A stretch of DNA of 49,481 nt from a bacterium (GTDB lineage Bacteria; Margulisbacteria; Marinamargulisbacteria; SXXA01; JAHFDB01). Below are positions 32,121-39,652 of this stretch, one piece after another (the first letter of the stretch is position 1; each line of letters begins with the position of its first letter). Position numbers and translations under genes: made by a program. Below the pieces are notes generated by a model. It saw only the letters and a list, made by a program, of their open reading frames with translations. It had not been told where the DNA came from and made no database searches. The stretch lies in assembly GCA_023249195.1 (NCBI GenBank), contig JAHFDB010000006.1, forward strand, positions 1-49,481, in the 5' to 3' direction.

Positions 32121-32938
32121 AAAAGGTTGGGGTGACCGGAAGTACCGGATTTATTGGTCAGCGTTACTTTGAATCGAATCCAAATCAAGTCCAGCTGGTA
32201 CCCCTTCCTTTGAGGGAAGGGCTTCAGTTACTTCCCTTAACGGGTCTAGATGCGCTTGTTCATCTTGCCGGGAAAGCCCATGTCACGGCTCACCCTCATG
32301 ACCCTTCTTATTTTAAAATCAATACCGAACTCACGCTGAAACTTGCTCAAAAAGCCAAAGAAAAAAAGGTGCGTCATTTTATCTATATGAGTTCTGTAAA
32401 AGCAGAAAGTAACGATATTTATGGTCAAAGCAAAAGAAAAGCCGAAGAAGGCCTTCTAGAAATGGCCTCCCCGGAATTTAAAGTTGCCCTCATTCGCCCC
32501 CCTCTCGTATATGGTCCGAATGTCAAGGCCAATATGCTTTATTTAATGCGTCTGTGTCAACGGCCTATTCCCTTGCCTTTCAAAGGGATTCACAATGCTC
32601 GCAGTATGGTCTTTGTCGATACCCTTTTAAGCTTAGTAAGCACCATTATCGATCAAGAAGCCGAAGGCCTTTTTATCGCGGGAGACCCACATCCCCTTTC
32701 TACTGAATTTTTAGTCAAAGAAATTCGGAAAAATTTACACATGCCCGAGCGCCTCTTTTCGCTTCCATCGATCCTGACACACCTTATTAAACTTCTAAAA
32801 CCTGGCCTTTATGACAGGCTATTTGGGTCTTATATCATCGACAATCAGCCTAGCAACCAGGCCTTGCATTTTACGCCCCCTTTTTCATCTGAACATGGCA
32901 TCAAAGAAATGGTAGAATGGTTCAAGAAACTTTCATGA
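32117..32938 (+). CDS. NAD-dependent epimerase/dehydratase
   Basis: VTGSTGFIG, HLAGKAH, YGQSK, RPPLVYGP. Confidence 0.92.
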   Translation: MKKVGVTGSTGFIGQRYFESNPNQVQLVPLPLREGLQLLPLTGLDALVHLAGKAHVTAHPHDPSYFKINTELTLKLAQKAKEKKVRHFIYMSSVKAESNDIYGQSKRKAEEGLLEMASPEFKVALIRPPLVYGPNVKANMLYLMRLCQRPIPLPFKGIHNARSMVFVDTLLSLVSTIIDQEAEGLFIAGDPHPLSTEFLVKEIRKNLHMPERLFSLPSILTHLIKLLKPGLYDRLFGSYIIDNQPSNQALHFTPPFSSEHGIKEMVEWFKKLS

Positions 32939-34149
32939 ACATGTCCTTTAATCTCGATACATTTATCTCGGAAAAAATAACGCAAAGGCCTCAGAGCCTT
33001 TTGGCAGAAGATTTGTCTGTTTTTGACACCCCTATTCGGAAAGAAATTACAGGGAAATCGGTCTTGGTGATTGGGGCTGCAGGTACCATTGGAGCTTCTT
33101 TTGTAAGGGCTATTCTTACCTATGCACCTCAAAAACTCGTCGTCGTCGATATTAACGAAAACGGCCTCACAGAATTAGTAAGAGACTGCAGAAGCCGAGA
33201 TACGCTAACGCTACCAAACGCCTTTAAATCTTACCCTATTAATTTTGGCGAACCTGTTTTTAAAAAAATATTCCTTGCTGAAGGACCCTTTGACATTGTC
33301 GCTAATTTTGCCGCTCACAAACATGTCCGAAGTGAAAAAGACATCTATTCTATAGAAGCCATGATTGAAAACAATGTGCTCAAAGCTAAGGGATTGCTTG
33401 ATTTACTTCTAGAATATCCCCCCCAACATTTTTTCTGTGTCTCTACAGATAAAGCAGCAAATCCGGTCAATATTATGGGGGCTAGCAAAAAACTTATGGA
33501 AAATCTTATTCTTGCTTATTCAAAAAAACTACCCATTACCACCGCACGCTTTGCCAATGTTGCCTTTTCTAATGGCAGCCTACCCGCAGGATTTATTGAA
33601 CGTGTGATGAAACGCCAACCCCTTTCTTGTCCATCGGATGTCCGACGATATTTTGTGTCTCCTGAAGAATCCGGACAACTGTGCTTAATGGCCTGTGTTC
33701 TAGGTAAGTCCGGTGAGATTTTTTTTCCAAAGCTTCAGGAAAAAGACTTGATCTATTTTTCCTCTATTGCTGAAAATTTTCTAGAAGCACTTGGACTCTC
33801 CCCTGAAGCATGTGATTCAGAAGAGGATGCCAAAAAAAAAGCAGCTTCCTTAACTAAAACTTCTCAAAAATATCCCTTGTATCTTTTTAAAAGTGATACC
33901 TCCGGAGAAAAATTATACGAAGAGTTTTACACACAAGATGAAAAAAAAGATCTCACCCGGTTTAAGGCTTTAGGGGTCATTCAAGACGCTGCTCACCCTA
34001 GCCTATCTGAACTCAATACTATGATCAAGAGCCTTGAAACTTGTTTTTCAAAACCTACTCAAAAATCCGACATCGTCGACTTGCTCAAACTGCTTCTTCC
34101 AAACTTTCAACATATTGAAACCGGTCTCAATTTAGACCAGAAAATGTAA
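32935..34149 (+). CDS. Polysaccharide biosynthesis protein, UDP-GlcNAc 4,6-dehydratase (CapD-like)
   Basis: GAAGTIG, AAHKHVRSE, STDKAANP..MGASK, RFANVAFSNGS, GEK.YEE. Confidence 0.9.
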   Translation: MNMSFNLDTFISEKITQRPQSLLAEDLSVFDTPIRKEITGKSVLVIGAAGTIGASFVRAILTYAPQKLVVVDINENGLTELVRDCRSRDTLTLPNAFKSYPINFGEPVFKKIFLAEGPFDIVANFAAHKHVRSEKDIYSIEAMIENNVLKAKGLLDLLLEYPPQHFFCVSTDKAANPVNIMGASKKLMENLILAYSKKLPITTARFANVAFSNGSLPAGFIERVMKRQPLSCPSDVRRYFVSPEESGQLCLMACVLGKSGEIFFPKLQEKDLIYFSSIAENFLEALGLSPEACDSEEDAKKKAASLTKTSQKYPLYLFKSDTSGEKLYEEFYTQDEKKDLTRFKALGVIQDAAHPSLSELNTMIKSLETCFSKPTQKSDIVDLLKLLLPNFQHIETGLNLDQKM

Positions 34150-34817
34150 TGCCAATGTACCTATTTCTGAAACGTAGTCTTGATATCTTCATTTCTTTAT
34201 CTGCCCTTGTTTTATTACTGCCATTTTTAGTTCCTATTGTGATAGTGTTGCGCCTCACTGGTGAGGGCTATGTTTTTTATAGGCAAAGACGCATAGGCCT
34301 GCACAATGTCTATTTTGATATCCTCAAATTCGCCACCATGCTCAAAGACAGTCCTAATATGGGGACGGGAAGCATCACATTGCGACAAGACCCTCGAATT
34401 ACCCCTATGGGGACGTTTTTGCGCAAGACGAAGATTAATGAGCTTCCGCAAATTTTAAACGTCCTTAAAGGGGATATGAGCATCGTGGGGCCAAGGCCTT
34501 TAGTAGACAAAACCTTCAACGCCTATCCAGAGGCTATTCGAGACAAAGTTTATCAGTCCCGTCCGGGAATTACTGGCATTGGGTCGATTATTTTTCGAGA
34601 CGAAGAATCGCTCATTTCAGCCTCTCCACTTGAACCCCATGCTTTTTATGCACAGATTATTGCTCCCTATAAAGGGGCCTTAGAAATGTGGTACTTAACC
34701 CATAAGTCGATGGGAGTGGATTTGAAAATTATTTTTCTGACTGCCTGGGCTATTCTATTTTCCAAAAATGAGTTAGTTTATCGCTGGTTCAAAGATCTGC
34801 CTCCGCGCTCTTTTTAG
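34149..34817 (+). CDS. Bacterial sugar transferase (polyprenyl glycosylphosphotransferase)
   Basis: KRSLDI, KFATM, DPRIT..G.FLRKTKINELPQ, GDMSIVGPRP, RPGITG. Confidence 0.93.
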   Translation: MPMYLFLKRSLDIFISLSALVLLLPFLVPIVIVLRLTGEGYVFYRQRRIGLHNVYFDILKFATMLKDSPNMGTGSITLRQDPRITPMGTFLRKTKINELPQILNVLKGDMSIVGPRPLVDKTFNAYPEAIRDKVYQSRPGITGIGSIIFRDEESLISASPLEPHAFYAQIIAPYKGALEMWYLTHKSMGVDLKIIFLTAWAILFSKNELVYRWFKDLPPRSF

Positions 34818-34819
34818 CG

Positions 34820-35674
34820 ATGAATGCCGTCATTGTTTCCAAATTAGGAGAGATGGGGTGGCATCCCCCTACGGCTGACGGATTAAAACATAGCATGGAA
34901 GTGTTATTTAAGCATGCCCCACGGGTGCTTAGTAAACCCATTAAGGCCCTCGTTTTACCCCATGCGGGATACACCTACTCTGGACTCACTGCCGCGATGG
35001 GAATCACTCAAATCGACTCCAAAACAAGGTATTCAAAAATTCTGATATTGGGTCCAAGCCATTACGTTCCCTTGAAAAACAAAGGCCACATCACGTCTGC
35101 AAGGGCAATCCAAACCCCCTTAGGAGAAGCCCCCCTTGATACGGAGTCACTTGCTTTTTTAAAAAAAGCTCCTATTTTTGAGTCTATTGATGCCATTGAT
35201 CAACAAGAGCATTGCATCCAAATCGAGGTTCCTTTTTTTCAGACGGTTTTGCCAGGCATCCCCATCTTACCGATTGTTCTCGGATCGCTTGACCGCGCAG
35301 CTGCACACGGCATTGCCGAGTTGCTCGAACCTTTTTTAGACGACACCACCCTACTCGTCATTAGTAGTGACTTTACCCATTACGGAGCTTCGTTTGGATA
35401 TGTTCCTTTTTCTCACAATATCGAAGAAAACATTCGTTCTTTTGATGCTGAAGTCATAGCGCCTCTTTGCGACTTGAACGAGTCAAAGGTGTATAATGAA
35501 TTTCGTCGAAGAGAACGCACTATTTGTGGTGAATCTGCTCTTAAAGTGATGGTGCCACTCCTTCGATCCAAGTGGCCTAGTCTGGAAGGAACATGCATTG
35601 ACTATCGCATGTCTGGCCAACTTAATTCCGACTGGTCTTTTAGCGTCAGTTACGCAGCCCTTACATGGACATAG
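34820..35674 (+). CDS. amrB: AmmeMemoRadiSam system protein B (MEMO1-like)
   Basis: PHAGY.YSG, LGPSH, TPLG, EH.IQIE.PF, ISSDFTHYG, TICG, VSYA. Confidence 0.9.
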   Translation: MNAVIVSKLGEMGWHPPTADGLKHSMEVLFKHAPRVLSKPIKALVLPHAGYTYSGLTAAMGITQIDSKTRYSKILILGPSHYVPLKNKGHITSARAIQTPLGEAPLDTESLAFLKKAPIFESIDAIDQQEHCIQIEVPFFQTVLPGIPILPIVLGSLDRAAAHGIAELLEPFLDDTTLLVISSDFTHYGASFGYVPFSHNIEENIRSFDAEVIAPLCDLNESKVYNEFRRRERTICGESALKVMVPLLRSKWPSLEGTCIDYRMSGQLNSDWSFSVSYAALTWT

Positions 35675-36228
35675 AACTCTCTTCTGAAGTTAAAACATGG
35701 TTACTTACCCAGGCCCGATCCTGCCTTGGTCATTATCTTTCTTTTGGAAAAATCCCCTCTCTTGACGGGCTGCCTACCGACCCTGTTCTACAAGAAAACC
35801 GTGGCGTATTTGTTACCCTCACACAGAGAAAAACCCACCAATTAAGAGGCTGTATCGGCACCCTTCAAACACAGGATCCTCTATGGAAATCTGTTATGCT
35901 CTATGTCATTTATGCCGCCCTAAATGACACTCGGTTTGTACCTGTAACCCCACCAGAACTCCCCCATCTGCGAATAGAAATTTCAGTCCTCTCCCCCTTT
36001 TTGCCTATCTCTTCTTATACCGATATTGTCCTAGGAAAGCATGGGATTTTATTTGAAAAGTCGGGAAAAAGGGCGGTATTCCTTCCTCATGTTCCCCTCG
36101 AACATGGCTGGACCCTTACAGAAACACTCGATCAACTGGCCCTAAAAGCAGGTCTGCATAAAGAGGCTTGGAAAGACCATTCTCAATTCAAAGTTTTTGA
36201 GAGTCTGTATTTTAGCGAAACGCTATGA
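35665..36228 (+). CDS. amrA: AmmeMemoRadiSam system protein A (AMMECR1-like)
   Basis: GVFVTL, LRGCIG, D.RF.PV, IEISVLS, GKHG, FLP.V, L.LKAGL. Confidence 0.92.
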   Translation: MDIELSSEVKTWLLTQARSCLGHYLSFGKIPSLDGLPTDPVLQENRGVFVTLTQRKTHQLRGCIGTLQTQDPLWKSVMLYVIYAALNDTRFVPVTPPELPHLRIEISVLSPFLPISSYTDIVLGKHGILFEKSGKRAVFLPHVPLEHGWTLTETLDQLALKAGLHKEAWKDHSQFKVFESLYFSETL

Positions 36229-36269: not shown

Positions 36270-38768
36270 TTAGACTACCCCAAATGGTGCTACATCCCTA
36301 ATAACTGGCGGTAATTCGCCGAAAGTATGCCCAGATCGTAAGACTGGCACCGTAGACACCGAGGCTTGCTGTGCTTGAAGTTGCTCAAGATACTTAGGAA
36401 TTTCTATCTTAAAGAATGCAATAGCAGCCGAAGATTCCTCCACTTTATCGCTGGTCAGATTTTCCAAATGACTCACAACCTCAGAATTCTCCATTAATCT
36501 AGGGTCCGCAGAACGAACCATATCTTGAATACTATGCCCCACTTGTTTGAGCAATACCTTTTTGGCATTCTCTCGGGGATTTACTGGATTCCCAAACACC
36601 GGATCTAACTCACGCCCTAAAGACACCACCACGGTTGGGACATCGCTGTATCGTTCGGTATGTGCGTTTTGCAATCCAATCCATAAAGGGTCTTCGGCAT
36701 TTATTGGAATCCCGTTTGCAAAGTCAAATTCACCCCCTAATTGTACATAAGCTTCAGAAACAACCCCCGTTGAATCTAGTACAAACCAAGAATATCCACC
36801 CACACCCGTTTTACTAGGAATACGCACACCTGAATCAGTCACACTCGTCCCCTGGTTATAGGCCCCATTGTGACTTAATTGATCACGCAGGTCAGCTTGA
36901 AGTGAGGCAGAAATGTGGGGGCAAGTCCACATCGAGGTTATGATCCTTGCATAGGACTCTGGATCAGTCTCCATAGCACATCCCGATGTATATACTTCCA
37001 TATAATGTTTGGCCTTTGCCAAGACCCCTGCCCTCTCTTCTTCGGTTCCTGTGAGCAACATTTGCTGCAAGTCTTTCCCCAAGAGCCCCTTAGAAATAAG
37101 TCGAAGCATTCTAGATTCATTATCCTGTGGATTTAAATTGAGCTCAGCCTGCTTACTCTTGCACGCACGTTTATAGGTATCAAAATCTTTCTTAGAGATA
37201 CTCGGCTTTGCCATCTCCATTAATTGATCCAACAAATGGTATTTCACTGTTTGATATTCAAATTCAGATCCCATAATCGTTTTTTTGAAAGGTTTCTTCT
37301 GAATAACACCTAAAATAACCTCGGCAAACTTTCGCATGTTTTGAGTGATTTCAGGATTGTCTAGCACGGCTTCAACCTCACTCGAAAATTTAGAGACTGT
37401 TGTTGGCCCACATTCAAGCAGCGTTTGGAGGGATAGAAACAAACGGTATCCGCATGCGCTTTCCTCATCCAACTTAGGTGCGTAACTTTTCAAAAGACCC
37501 TCAATTAAACCCGCTTTATGTGCCTGATAGGCTTCTACTTTGTCTTTATCTTTTCGATTTCCTAATACCGATGCTCTACTTTCTTCGGTATCTTTCAATT
37601 CCCCTTCAAGTACCTGAGCATTCACCTTAACAGGATCTCTTTTTTCAGAATCAAAAGAATTAACAAAAGCGGTAAATATTGAAGCATGATCGGTATATTC
37701 AACCCCTCTAATTACAGCATAATCGATATTCAAACAAAACCCTGCAACGTTAGCCAAAGCACCATAATTGGTAGAAATCCCCGCAATATCATGAACTGTT
37801 TTATAGTGTCCTTCTTTCTCATCAATGCCTTGGCTAGGTCTTACATTATAGGCGTGTCCAAAAGGCACATCGCTATGCACGGGAGGCATGGCTAAACAAA
37901 CGGAATCCACAACCGCATCTAAAGGGCTTAGACCTTTTTCCTTCATGTCTTCTTTTGAAAGGGGAGGAAACACAAAAACATGTTTCCCCGTTGCGTCTTT
38001 AAATATATGTCGACAATCTTGAGAAAGCCTTTTTAGCAGAAATGCAAAAGGCTTCGAGGTTGATTGCAAGGTAGCTCTATCATCGCCTTTCCCAGGAACA
38101 GAACGGCACATTTCTGTTACGATATCTCCCTCAGATTCTTTTGCTACCACAAGAACATTTGTGCGTTGATCGTTAATTCTAGCTTTCTCAATGTATCCCC
38201 TTGTTGTCATCCCTCTTTGTAAAATAGCTTCAACATCCTCATCGAGACTTCCTGAAAGTGTGAGGCGTGTATCTTTGCTTCCACTTTCAATAACCACAAG
38301 CTCTCGGCTATCGTTTTTTGTATCTAAATTGACTTGATCTAATTTCCAAACGATGCCATTAGTCATGGTAATGCTTAGTGCCAAAGCACCGATATAGGTA
38401 GCGGTTCGTCTACCATGAGTTTCTTCCTCTTTTGTTCTTGGTGCGGGGGGCAAAGAATCTGGTAAATCCAGGGACAATATTCTTGAAGCTCTCGAAGCGC
38501 TGCTTTCAACAGAAACAGACCTAGACGCTATAGGAGAAGACCATTCTGAACTTGATGGAGACCCAGAAGGTGTTTTTCTGAGCTTAGCTTTAGCGTCCAT
38601 TAGAAGCTTAGAAGCCCCAGACACACGTTCATTGGCCTGTGACATATCCAGCCCTGAAGAAGCCCGAGAAGATAGCCCACTTTGAACAGGGCCAAACATA
38701 GCCGCCAGTTGCCTAACAGAAGGTTTTTGATCTTTTTGATCAGGGGGTAAAAATGGTAGATTTGCCAT
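36270..38768 (-). CDS. Large divergent glutaminase-fold protein with Ser-rich N-terminal extension (candidate secreted effector)
   Basis: Ordered glutaminase motifs QSTSKPF, NYGAL, VLEGE, YTSGCAME, NGAYN, PSKTGVGG, LD..GNP align with those of the canonical enzyme at 42301; GGGAG RBS. Confidence 0.7.
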   Translation of the reverse strand: MANLPFLPPDQKDQKPSVRQLAAMFGPVQSGLSSRASSGLDMSQANERVSGASKLLMDAKAKLRKTPSGSPSSSEWSSPIASRSVSVESSASRASRILSLDLPDSLPPAPRTKEEETHGRRTATYIGALALSITMTNGIVWKLDQVNLDTKNDSRELVVIESGSKDTRLTLSGSLDEDVEAILQRGMTTRGYIEKARINDQRTNVLVVAKESEGDIVTEMCRSVPGKGDDRATLQSTSKPFAFLLKRLSQDCRHIFKDATGKHVFVFPPLSKEDMKEKGLSPLDAVVDSVCLAMPPVHSDVPFGHAYNVRPSQGIDEKEGHYKTVHDIAGISTNYGALANVAGFCLNIDYAVIRGVEYTDHASIFTAFVNSFDSEKRDPVKVNAQVLEGELKDTEESRASVLGNRKDKDKVEAYQAHKAGLIEGLLKSYAPKLDEESACGYRLFLSLQTLLECGPTTVSKFSSEVEAVLDNPEITQNMRKFAEVILGVIQKKPFKKTIMGSEFEYQTVKYHLLDQLMEMAKPSISKKDFDTYKRACKSKQAELNLNPQDNESRMLRLISKGLLGKDLQQMLLTGTEEERAGVLAKAKHYMEVYTSGCAMETDPESYARIITSMWTCPHISASLQADLRDQLSHNGAYNQGTSVTDSGVRIPSKTGVGGYSWFVLDSTGVVSEAYVQLGGEFDFANGIPINAEDPLWIGLQNAHTERYSDVPTVVVSLGRELDPVFGNPVNPRENAKKVLLKQVGHSIQDMVRSADPRLMENSEVVSHLENLTSDKVEESSAAIAFFKIEIPKYLEQLQAQQASVSTVPVLRSGHTFGELPPVIRDVAPFGVV

Positions 38769-38867
38769 AACAACATCTCCCTCTCAGTCTAAATCTTCCC
38801 CTTATTTTGGTTGATTTAAACATAACTTGCATAAAAAAATGCGCCTAAGGAACCCATGCTGTTTCAA

Positions 38868-38904: not shown

Positions 38905-38949
38905 AAATTATAAAGCCTGCTTAAATTTTTATAAAAACTATGCTATAAT
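38905..38949 (+). promoter_or_regulatory. Putative MntR/DtxR operator and extended -10 promoter of the metalloregulator gene
   Basis: Imperfect palindrome TAAAG-CCTG-CTTAA within AAATT/AATTT flanks (38905-38930); TGCTATAAT at 38941-38949. Confidence 0.45.
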
Positions 38950-38989: not shown

Positions 38990-39652
38990 ATGAAACCAGT
39001 CACAGAAAACTATTTGAAACTTATATTCAACCTCCAGCAAAACCATCCAGGAGCAGTGAAGCCTCTGCTGATTTCTAAAAGCCTAGAAGTGACGCCTCCG
39101 GCTGTATCTGAAATGCTCAAAAAACTTGCTGATGAGCATTATATAGAATACATCCCTTATCACGGAGTCAAACTTACAAAAAAAGGGCTTATCCAGGGTC
39201 AAAACATGGTCAGACGGCACCGATTATGGGAACTTTATTTACACAAAATTCTAGGGTTTCCCTGGGACAAGGTGCACCAAGAAGCCGAATTATTAGAACA
39301 TGCCTCTTCTGATGACGTCATCAATAAACTTGAAGAAGTGATGGGATTTCCCGAATATGACCCCCATGGAGACCCGATTCCTTCTAAAGAAGGCATTTTT
39401 CCAAAGGCGCTTGCAAGCCTGCCCCTGTCAAAGTGCAAGGTAAACGATAGTTTAAAGGTTGTTAGGGTCAGCGACTTTGACAATGAGTTTTTGCACTACA
39501 TCGATACTTTGGGCATCCAACTGCAACAACACCTTGTTGTAGAAGATATTCGGTCCTTTGATCACTCGTTTTTAATTTCTATTGGATCTAGAAAAGAAAC
39601 CATTAGTGAATTTACCGCACAGCATATTTTTGTGATTCGAGAAGGAAACTAA
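38990..39652 (+). CDS. DtxR/MntR family metal-dependent transcriptional regulator with FeoA domain
   Basis: ENYLK.I, V.PPAVSEM.KKL, RRHRLWE, EAE.LEH, DPHGDPIP. Confidence 0.95.
   Translation: MKPVTENYLKLIFNLQQNHPGAVKPLLISKSLEVTPPAVSEMLKKLADEHYIEYIPYHGVKLTKKGLIQGQNMVRRHRLWELYLHKILGFPWDKVHQEAELLEHASSDDVINKLEEVMGFPEYDPHGDPIPSKEGIFPKALASLPLSKCKVNDSLKVVRVSDFDNEFLHYIDTLGIQLQQHLVVEDIRSFDHSFLISIGSRKETISEFTAQHIFVIREGN

Follow-up and report, generated by a model that had tools for sequence, protein, structure and literature searches.

The catalytic site of the serine-dependent glutaminases is described for human kidney-type glutaminase (KGA), in which Ser286 and Lys289 form the catalytic dyad, Gln285 contacts the alpha-amino group, Tyr414 contacts the alpha-carboxylate, Tyr466 acts as a proton relay, and the backbone of Val484 lies in the oxyanion hole; alanine mutants of Tyr249, Ser286, Lys289, and Tyr466 lose activity (according to PMC4929687). 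The window analyzed here is a stretch of 49,481 nucleotides from a groundwater bacterium of the Margulisbacteria (assembly GCA_023249195.1, contig JAHFDB010000006.1, forward strand). It contains a gene for a protein of 832 residues in which S236, K239, Q235, Y593, Y637, and V656 are the putative counterparts of Ser286, Lys289, Gln285, Tyr414, Tyr466, and Val484 of KGA. We refer to this protein and its relatives as the long form, since it has 2.75 times the length of the canonical GlsA (302 residues) that is also encoded in the window. We interpret the long form as an extremely diverged glutaminase-superfamily protein, cytoplasmic and restricted to its lineage, that probably still acts as an amidohydrolase, a reading to which we assign a probability of about 0.5. 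A cytoplasmic location is proposed because no hydrophobic segment of signal or transmembrane strength was found (maximum 19-residue Kyte-Doolittle value 1.24; no dedicated signal-peptide predictor was run).

Sequence comparison establishes the long form as an extremely diverged homolog of the serine-dependent glutaminases at the superfamily level, through a bridge rather than directly. The window protein matches a 686-residue relative of the same architecture in genome G009 (BLASTP, E=4e-9, spanning residues 515-658), and that relative in turn matches the Pfam glutaminase family PF04960 with 54.1 bits in two colinear stretches, which passes the gathering cut-off of 27 bits; one stretch runs over residues 188-325 on profile positions 14-140, or 188-308 on 14-121. 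The G009 protein also matches the canonical GlsA of the window (BLASTP, E=5e-7 and 5e-5), and scores 36-40 bits against the short GlsA type versus 22-29 bits against the longer, GLS-like type. The window protein itself gives a best E of 0.14 against the adjacent GlsA, not above chance, and its N-terminal half alone has no PF04960 match. A profile of the three long forms yielded five PDB matches at E<=1, every one a glutaminase (best 2pby, E=8.5e-8). When the long forms were compared by hhalign with six canonical or GLS-like Margulisbacterial rows, both the C-terminal half (85%, E=6.5e-6) and the N-terminal half (74%, E=2.7e-5) aligned, with scores of 47.8 and 39.7 against maxima of 20.7 and 24.2 in 40 column shuffles each. 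The window protein taken alone exceeded its shuffles as well, with 25.3 versus 21.9 for the C-terminal half and, narrowly, 28.7 versus 27.6 for the N-terminal half. The long form falls outside the curated glutaminase equivalogs: the NCBIfam models TIGR03814, NF002132-4, and NF009020-1 have cut-offs of 255-557 bits, and the G009 relative reaches 52.5 bits against a cut-off of 255.4.

By alignment, the window protein retains Ser236, Lys239, Tyr637, Tyr593, Gln235, and the K653-T-G-V656 strand that, with the backbone of Ser236, would form the oxyanion hole. Five motif pairs are the same in hhalign and MAFFT and lie in blocks that score above all shuffles, namely Q235-S236-x-x-K239, Y593-x3-C597-x2-E600, Y637, K653-T-G-V-G-G658, and G726-N727. 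(KGA numbers were mapped to the GlsA of the window by motif position only.) S236 and K239 fall on canonical S61 and K64 in every alignment made, as Y637 and Y593 fall on Y238 and Y186; the K653-T654-G655-V656 strand is present, with threonine replacing a serine that is invariant in 28 canonical rows. The equivalent of KGA Tyr249, canonical Y24, is paired with Y192 by hhalign and is off by one residue in MAFFT, and the G009 protein is gapped there in alignment A5. Within the robust blocks, measured against 28 canonical and GLS-like rows, the window protein keeps 19 of 37 invariant columns and 18 of 137 variable ones; for the G009 protein the figures are 18 of 32 and 26 of 118. The positions kept by the window protein include Q, S, K, Y, C, Y, and K-x-G-V-x-G.

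If this machinery works as in the known enzymes, Ser236 would attack the side-chain amide of glutamine or of a glutamine-like (gamma-glutamyl or amidated) compound, with Lys239 as the general base; ammonia would leave, and water would then hydrolyze the acyl-enzyme. In ordinary glutaminases a helical subdomain holds free L-glutamine by its alpha-amino and alpha-carboxylate groups. This subdomain appears to have been rebuilt in the long form, with a gain of at least about 150 residues, and substrate range, gating, or regulation would therefore probably be unlike those of GlsA. In the source genome the canonical GlsA would cover ordinary glutamine hydrolysis, and could thus have allowed further divergence of the long copy.

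The rebuilt subdomain is also where the alignments part ways. Seven approaches to the register of residues 245-592 were compared: a local hidden Markov model of the canonical rows, MAFFT with five row sets in three modes each, MAFFT with GLS-like rows added, canonical rows in fragments (which MAFFT misplaced), the window protein with canonical rows only, an hhalign slice, and a greedy hhalign path. For the asparagine that binds the substrate alpha-carboxylate (KGA Asn335) the candidate is N334, which a greedy hhalign path and MAFFT with GLS-like rows place on canonical N111, along with P302, G304, and N308 on P87, G89, and N93. Its support is weak (hhalign E=0.047; z=2.0 for the window protein versus G009, a score that 16 of 300 shuffles reach). 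For the G009 protein, the end-points of the Pfam stretch given above agree with this placement, as does the Asn loop in BLASTP against the canonical GlsA, but there N278 rather than N282 falls on canonical N111, four residues off. MAFFT with short GlsA rows prefers other registers for the loop. For the glutamate (KGA Glu381, which together with Asn388 binds the alpha-amino group of the substrate), E390 keeps the canonical Asn-to-Glu spacing of seven with marginal support (z=3.4; 4 of 300 shuffles); other row sets or methods put this residue at four other positions, and the greedy hhalign path pairs N550 with canonical N162 and leaves the glutamate unplaced. As the seven approaches disagree, we adopted none of these registers for the glutamate. 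An earlier note on this DNA had listed seven motif pairs in canonical order, of which the five named above stand, the asparagine pair is weak, and the glutamate pair is not established. The same note had put an insertion of about 200 residues between the glutamate and tyrosine motifs; this is one possible reading, with uncertain limits because the asparagine pair is weakly supported and the glutamate pair lacks an agreed register. The truly extra sequence may instead amount to about 150-195 residues ahead of the block at residues 515-592. That block is the second-best conserved one among the long forms (z=6.6 for the window protein versus G009), with D549, N550, R553, L557, S559, K560, and G561 invariant, and may correspond to the canonical R161-N162 helix, as suggested by a low-confidence hhalign pairing.

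A triad resembling that of penicillin-binding proteins can be read in the long form: S236-x-x-K239, S332-x-N334 (S280-x-N282 in the G009 protein), and K653-T-G655, although this denotes motif presence only, and the S-x-N element depends on the register chosen. No Pfam beta-lactamase or transpeptidase family matched the window or G009 protein at E<=10. Membership among the penicillin-binding proteins or serine beta-lactamases was rejected on the lack of a family match at that threshold and of any signal peptide or transmembrane segment found. A bolder idea, which we consider a long shot, is that the long forms represent a new class of Ser-Lys amidohydrolases that arose from glutaminases and have given up free glutamine for a larger amide. 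Their substrate could then be a glutamine residue within a peptide or protein chain, or a piece of amidated cell wall, for instance a muropeptide with iso-glutamine. In that case a new binding surface would be provided by the rebuilt helical subdomain, and the loss or displacement of the substrate clamp (the equivalents of KGA Glu381 and Asn388), the S-x-N and K-T-G elements, and a lytic-transglycosylase gene upstream of the G009 long form would all be meaningful. In its extreme version, the protein would be exported through a flagellar-type apparatus.

Structure models are compatible with the two-domain, beta-lactamase-like glutaminase fold, although they are no independent proof of it. AlphaFold2 (AF2) run on the single sequence gave a predicted local distance difference test score (pLDDT) of 34.5, which is unusable, and the ESM Atlas gave no usable feature match (Atlas model pLDDT 0.35). 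With alignment A5 (31 rows) the mean pLDDT rose to 50.4, with values of 64-89 over residues of about 571-780 and 67-74 over residues 231-250. The best VIA match of this model among 48161 chains is 2pby (Z=11.5, root-mean-square deviation 3.7 A, 203 of 291 residues, model residues 195-744); by their titles, the 50 entries shown comprise five glutaminases along with penicillin-binding proteins, beta-lactamases, and their relatives. In Foldseek against the PDB the first five rows are Bacillus glutaminases with E of about 0.02, and glutaminase rows range weakly from 0.02 to 0.4. The remodeled glutaminase fold that the earlier note had proposed, with an intact-looking Ser-Lys dyad, both tyrosines, and K-T-G-V, is supported by profile, shuffle, and model evidence.

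Several observations weigh against an active, glutaminase-like long form and temper our confidence in it. Taken alone, the window protein scores 13.1 bits against PF04960 (E=0.056, residues 585-665 only), below the cut-off; it has no match to the NCBIfam glutaminase models at E<=1, and a PDB sequence search with it found nothing. The enrichment of retained residues at invariant columns is partly built in, as the alignments anchor on conserved residues. The fold match to 2pby is partly circular, since glutaminases are in the AF2 input alignment; Foldseek against the PDB gives no match at E<=0.001, and the model has pLDDT below 50 over residues 251-560. Equivalents of KGA Glu381 and Asn388 could not be placed by hhalign or MAFFT and that of Asn335 is weakly supported, so binding of free L-glutamine by the long form is not demonstrated. 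The two other genomes with a long form, G009 and G007, are only 84% and 83% complete, and a canonical GlsA could be unassembled in them. Finally, the window protein has no close orthologue and its open reading frame (ORF) shows no difference among three samples; the measure of selection given below covers the G009/G007 pair only.

Much of this would also suit a pseudoenzyme or scaffold, in which the fold and perhaps ligand binding were kept and turnover was lost, leaving a sensor of glutamine or another metabolite or a binding partner that acts through the helical addition and the disordered tails. Extreme divergence points in this direction, the protein finding only itself among 1.84 billion representative proteins and no NCBIfam family, as do the substrate-binding Glu and Asn positions that are not identifiable, the canonical GlsA 3.5 kb away, and the long disordered or helical additions that match no known family. 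Yet the residues that survived replacement of some 75-80% of the sequence are the catalytic ones (the serine, the lysine, two tyrosines, the glutamine, and K-T-G-V), of which a pure scaffold needs none, and G009 and G007 have nothing else that matches the glutaminase family. On balance we regard a loss of turnover as unlikely, if plausible enough to be kept in mind.

The long form is rare. Its profile matches three of 146 genomes of the phylum, the source genome (G000), G009, and G007, all from uncultured groundwater or lake bacteria, while PF04960 matches 11 of the 55 genomes of the class. Both relatives emerged as weak matches when 41 related genomes were searched, and both belong to genus g8 of a sister family: the G009 protein (E=1.4e-5) and its orthologue in G007 (E=1.2e-4), which is split across two contig ends. 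No further family member was found among 5.8 billion clustered proteins (in a near-length window), 1.84 billion representatives, or metagenome and genome contigs. Neither G009 nor G007 has any PF04960 match besides the long form; in the source genome it occurs with canonical GlsA. The ratio of nonsynonymous to synonymous substitution rates (dN/dS) between G009 and G007 is 0.27 over 237 codons (core 0.21, conserved block 0.26, tail 0.47), and on this ground the gene is maintained under purifying selection in genus g8. The genes of the window and of G009/G007 have no neighbor in common. Upstream of the G009 long form (L008:6001-8061) is a gene with an SLT domain, followed further upstream by gcvP, and prfC is convergent. 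The SLT gene (L008:5255-5890, plus strand) encodes a 211-residue lytic-transglycosylase-domain protein on the same strand, 110 bp from the long form, and has no counterpart beside the window gene; its position may be fortuitous or may point to a substrate related to the cell wall. Separately, a DUF2326/AAA_23/ABC-3C CTD10 protein (L008:598-2334, plus strand), a candidate defense gene of ABC-three-component type, lies 3.7 kb upstream of the G009 long form.

This distribution raises the question of whether the window copy is on its way out, as a redundant ancestral glutaminase of the order that still works in genus g8 and became dispensable in the source genome once canonical GlsA was there, drifting to loss under relaxed selection and with no new function. 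The G009 protein (54 bits) is far closer to canonical glutaminases than the window protein (13 bits), the source genome is the only long-form genome that also holds canonical GlsA, that GlsA is about 70% identical to proteins labeled from several other phyla and so compatible with transfer, and neither the N- nor the C-terminal part is conserved between the window and G009 proteins. Against drift, the 832-codon frame is still open behind a good ribosome-binding site, catalytic positions are retained at a much higher rate than the rest, and the block at residues 515-592 is well conserved across genera. Drift to loss is a reading that we hold to be decidedly unlikely, and we continue with the long form as a diverged, probably active amidohydrolase.

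The earlier note had gone further and proposed an effector, secreted or injected, whose action would be either to deplete the glutamine of a host or to deamidate glutamine residues in host proteins. Several observations would suit this: a Ser/Pro-rich, probably disordered N-terminus without a Sec signal, a monocistronic orphan gene, one type-III-type export apparatus in the genome, and, elsewhere in the phylum, an intracellular symbiont of placozoan animals (as reported in PMC6784892). The apparatus, however, is flagellar in gene content. The single FHIPEP gene of the genome lies inside a flagellar-type cluster on contig C21 (L039:7-8484) made up of FliM/N, an FlhG-like ATPase, FliN, FliP, a 318-residue ORF without assignment, FliR, FlhB, and FlhA. 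In this genome, which is 92.9% complete, VipB (the sheath of type VI secretion systems), VirB4 (a marker of type IV secretion systems), and Flagellin_N had no match, and FliG_C had two, in unusually long open frames of 675 and 509 residues. The N-terminus recurs neither in the G009 relative nor in any other protein of the genome, giving no recurring module; tblastn with five protein segments against the genome found no second copy at E<0.1. There is no virulence or mobile context at the locus. The gene itself was found only in groundwater metagenomes of one study, its relatives come from environmental metagenome-assembled genomes, and Margulisbacteria are mostly known from sediment, groundwater, and ocean sequences (according to PMC6349859). 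Nothing indicates a host-associated life for the source organism, whose habitat label is groundwater. By title and the start of the abstract, the papers returned by a literature search included no glutaminase-fold effector and no work on a Margulisbacterial glutaminase. An effector is thus highly improbable. Widespread orthologues in metabolic operons, which the note had named as the opposite outcome, are not what we observe either: two other genomes hold a relative, none in an operon. As the sole PF04960 match in G009 and G007, the long form suits an ordinary metabolic role no less than that of an effector.

The gene and the regions of its product are listed in Table 1. The remaining descriptive statements of the earlier note hold up: a lone minus-strand gene between plus-strand genes, a protein nearly three times longer than canonical GlsA, a Ser/Pro-rich N-terminus, no Sec signal, and a canonical copy about 3.5 kb away.

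Table 1. Features of the long-form gene and of the canonical glutaminase gene in the window (residue numbers refer to the 832-residue protein)
Feature	Position	Strand	Basis
Whole ORF, long-form glutaminase-like protein, 832 residues and stop	36270..38768	-	ORF list; identity in three samples; GC pattern
Shine-Dalgarno-like AGGGAG, 8 nt upstream of the ATG at 38768	38777..38782	-	Direct reading
Promoter-like TTTATA-17-TATAAT (10/12 consensus match only)	38907..38935	-	Consensus scan
Residues 1-120, Ser/Pro-rich (20.8% Ser, 10% Pro), probably disordered, protein-specific	38409..38768	-	Composition; pLDDT <50
Residues 121-172, linker with Arg-Arg, then a weakly hydrophobic stretch	38253..38408	-	Low model confidence
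Residues 173-251, N-terminal core block with Y192, Q235, putative nucleophile S236, and K239	38016..38252	-	hhalign, shuffles
S236-T-S-K239 codons, predicted Ser-x-x-Lys catalytic dyad	38052..38063	-	Alignment; roles according to PMC4929687
Residues 252-514, apparently rebuilt helical subdomain and extra sequence, with candidate Asn loop and candidate Glu	37227..38015	-	Conflicting registers; pLDDT <50
Residues 515-592, block strongly conserved in the three long forms	36993..37226	-	BLASTP, invariant columns, z=6.6
Residues 593-740, C-terminal core	36549..36992	-	Pfam match 585-665, hhalign, shuffles, z=12.7, pLDDT 64-89
Residues 741-832 and stop, helical C-terminal tail, not common to the G009 protein	36270..36548	-	z=1.7; no family
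Canonical GlsA (comparator), 302 residues	42301..43209	+	PF04960, 378.5 bits; NF002133, 467 bits (cut-off 368)

The 832-residue ORF is genuine and no assembly artifact, because it is letter-identical in contigs of three samples from one groundwater study (X1, possibly the source sample; X2, which covers 27 of 30 bins; and X3, which covers 5 of 30). Its GC content is 0.43, with GC1>GC2>GC3 as in the neighboring genes. The first 185 codons are coding: none of 20000 shuffles stays open over this length, and the remaining two frames contain 6 and 14 stops. The promoter-like site of Table 1 is insignificant alone, since four such sites were found versus a mean of 5.9 in shuffles. The gene is flanked by plus-strand neighbors at 32917-36228 and 38990-40396, with genes for a CapD-like dehydratase, a sugar transferase, Memo, and AMMECR1 to the left, and for a DtxR-type regulator and a MetA-like outer-membrane protein to the right.

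Conservation between the window and G009 proteins is concentrated in the N-terminal core (z=7.1 in the shuffle test) and the C-terminal core; residues 1-185, the first part of the extra region, and the C-terminal tail show no similarity (z=0.6, 0.4, and 1.7). The extra region, residues 252-514, contains the candidate Asn loop (P302, G304, N308, and N334) and the candidate glutamate E390, and has no Pfam family. The C-terminal core holds Y593, C597, E600, Y637, K653-T-G-V656-G-G658, L721, and G726-N727, with an insertion of about 45 residues (668-711) between the K653-T-G-V656-G-G658 motif and L721. In both long forms the N-terminal region, the insertion, and the tail were scanned against Pfam, which returned nothing but sub-threshold noise. 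Near the start of the linker, residues 119-135 (38364-38414, minus strand) combine Arg-Arg with a stretch of Kyte-Doolittle value 1.23 and are loosely twin-arginine-like, yet internal and below transmembrane strength.

Two gene pairs of the window deserve mention in their own right. A 454-residue protein without Pfam or NCBIfam match, starting with a signal-like hydrophobic N-terminus, is encoded at 40937-42301 on the plus strand; the stop of its ORF overlaps the start of glsA at 42301, an arrangement suggestive of a two-gene operon in which the canonical glutaminase is paired with an exported or outer-membrane protein. At 34820-36228 (plus strand) the Memo-like and AMMECR1 genes overlap by 10 bases (35665-35674); Memo and AMMECR1 are the usual pair of the AmmeMemoRadiSam system.

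Glutaminases of any type are patchy in the phylum, with a GLS-like query matching 11 of 146 genomes. A GLS-like, longer glutaminase occurs in six other genomes in open frames of 441-581 residues, with an ankyrin-like tail in all five ORFs read. Eukaryote-like, kidney-type forms of about 500-560 residues, which have a helical region at the N-terminus and end in an ankyrin-like tail, are found at L013, L014, L015, and L017 (genomes G017, G019, G050, and G032), and also at L018 and L028. At least five genomes have a second, separate ankyrin-like frame after the GLS-like gene.

The long form opens no long-standing question, and its reading as an effector is without support. If active, the protein would illustrate to what extent a glutaminase can be remodeled with its catalytic machinery kept (identity of the window protein at variable positions is about 13%, and at least 150 extra residues lie inside the catalytic domain), and it would offer a natural case for how the substrate-binding helical subdomain sets specificity. 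For annotation, Margulisbacterial genomes that seemingly have no glutaminase, such as G009 and G007, may carry one that curated equivalog models miss.

With the effector deamidases named in the earlier note, CNF1, Cif/CHBP, and OspI, the long form has only the proposed glutamine deamidation chemistry in common; no such family matches the window protein in Pfam at E<=10, and its fold matches are all beta-lactamase-like. CNF1, Cif/CHBP, and OspI use a Cys-His mechanism. Micrococcus luteus Mglu (PDB 3agd/3if5, 456 residues) is a bacterial glutaminase above the minimal length, matched by the long-form profile at E=0.04 and by the model at Z=11.0; in Mglu the extra part forms a C-terminal domain of its own, next to a canonical catalytic domain. 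The bacterial enzymes GlsA, YbaS, and YbgJ (PF04960; PDB 2pby, 1mki/3brm, and 1u60) belong to the same superfamily and fold as the long form. The short GlsA type has the Ser-x-x-Lys, Tyr-x3-Cys, catalytic Tyr, K-[ST]-G-V-G-G, and C-terminal G-N motifs in the same order. Relative to this type, the window protein carries 170 additional residues at the N-terminus, a helical subdomain that is rebuilt and larger, about 45 additional residues in the last beta-hairpin, a 90-residue tail, and Thr for Ser in K-S-G; its Glu381 and Asn388 equivalents are not identifiable, and it falls below every curated threshold. Human GLS/KGA/GAC (PDB 8gwr and 5fi2) and the GLS-like Margulisbacterial forms (L013-L017) also combine a glutaminase core with large extra regions. 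The Q-S-T-S-K-P nucleophile motif of the window protein recurs in one of four GLS-like Margulisbacterial forms (L013), and the kidney-type structures match the long-form model, itself a prediction, at VIA Z=11.1 and 10.9. Unlike GLS, the window protein has no ankyrin or EF-hand-like region found in Pfam; and whereas the extra parts of GLS are terminal, an N-terminal helical region and C-terminal ankyrin repeats, the long form is expanded inside its catalytic domain.

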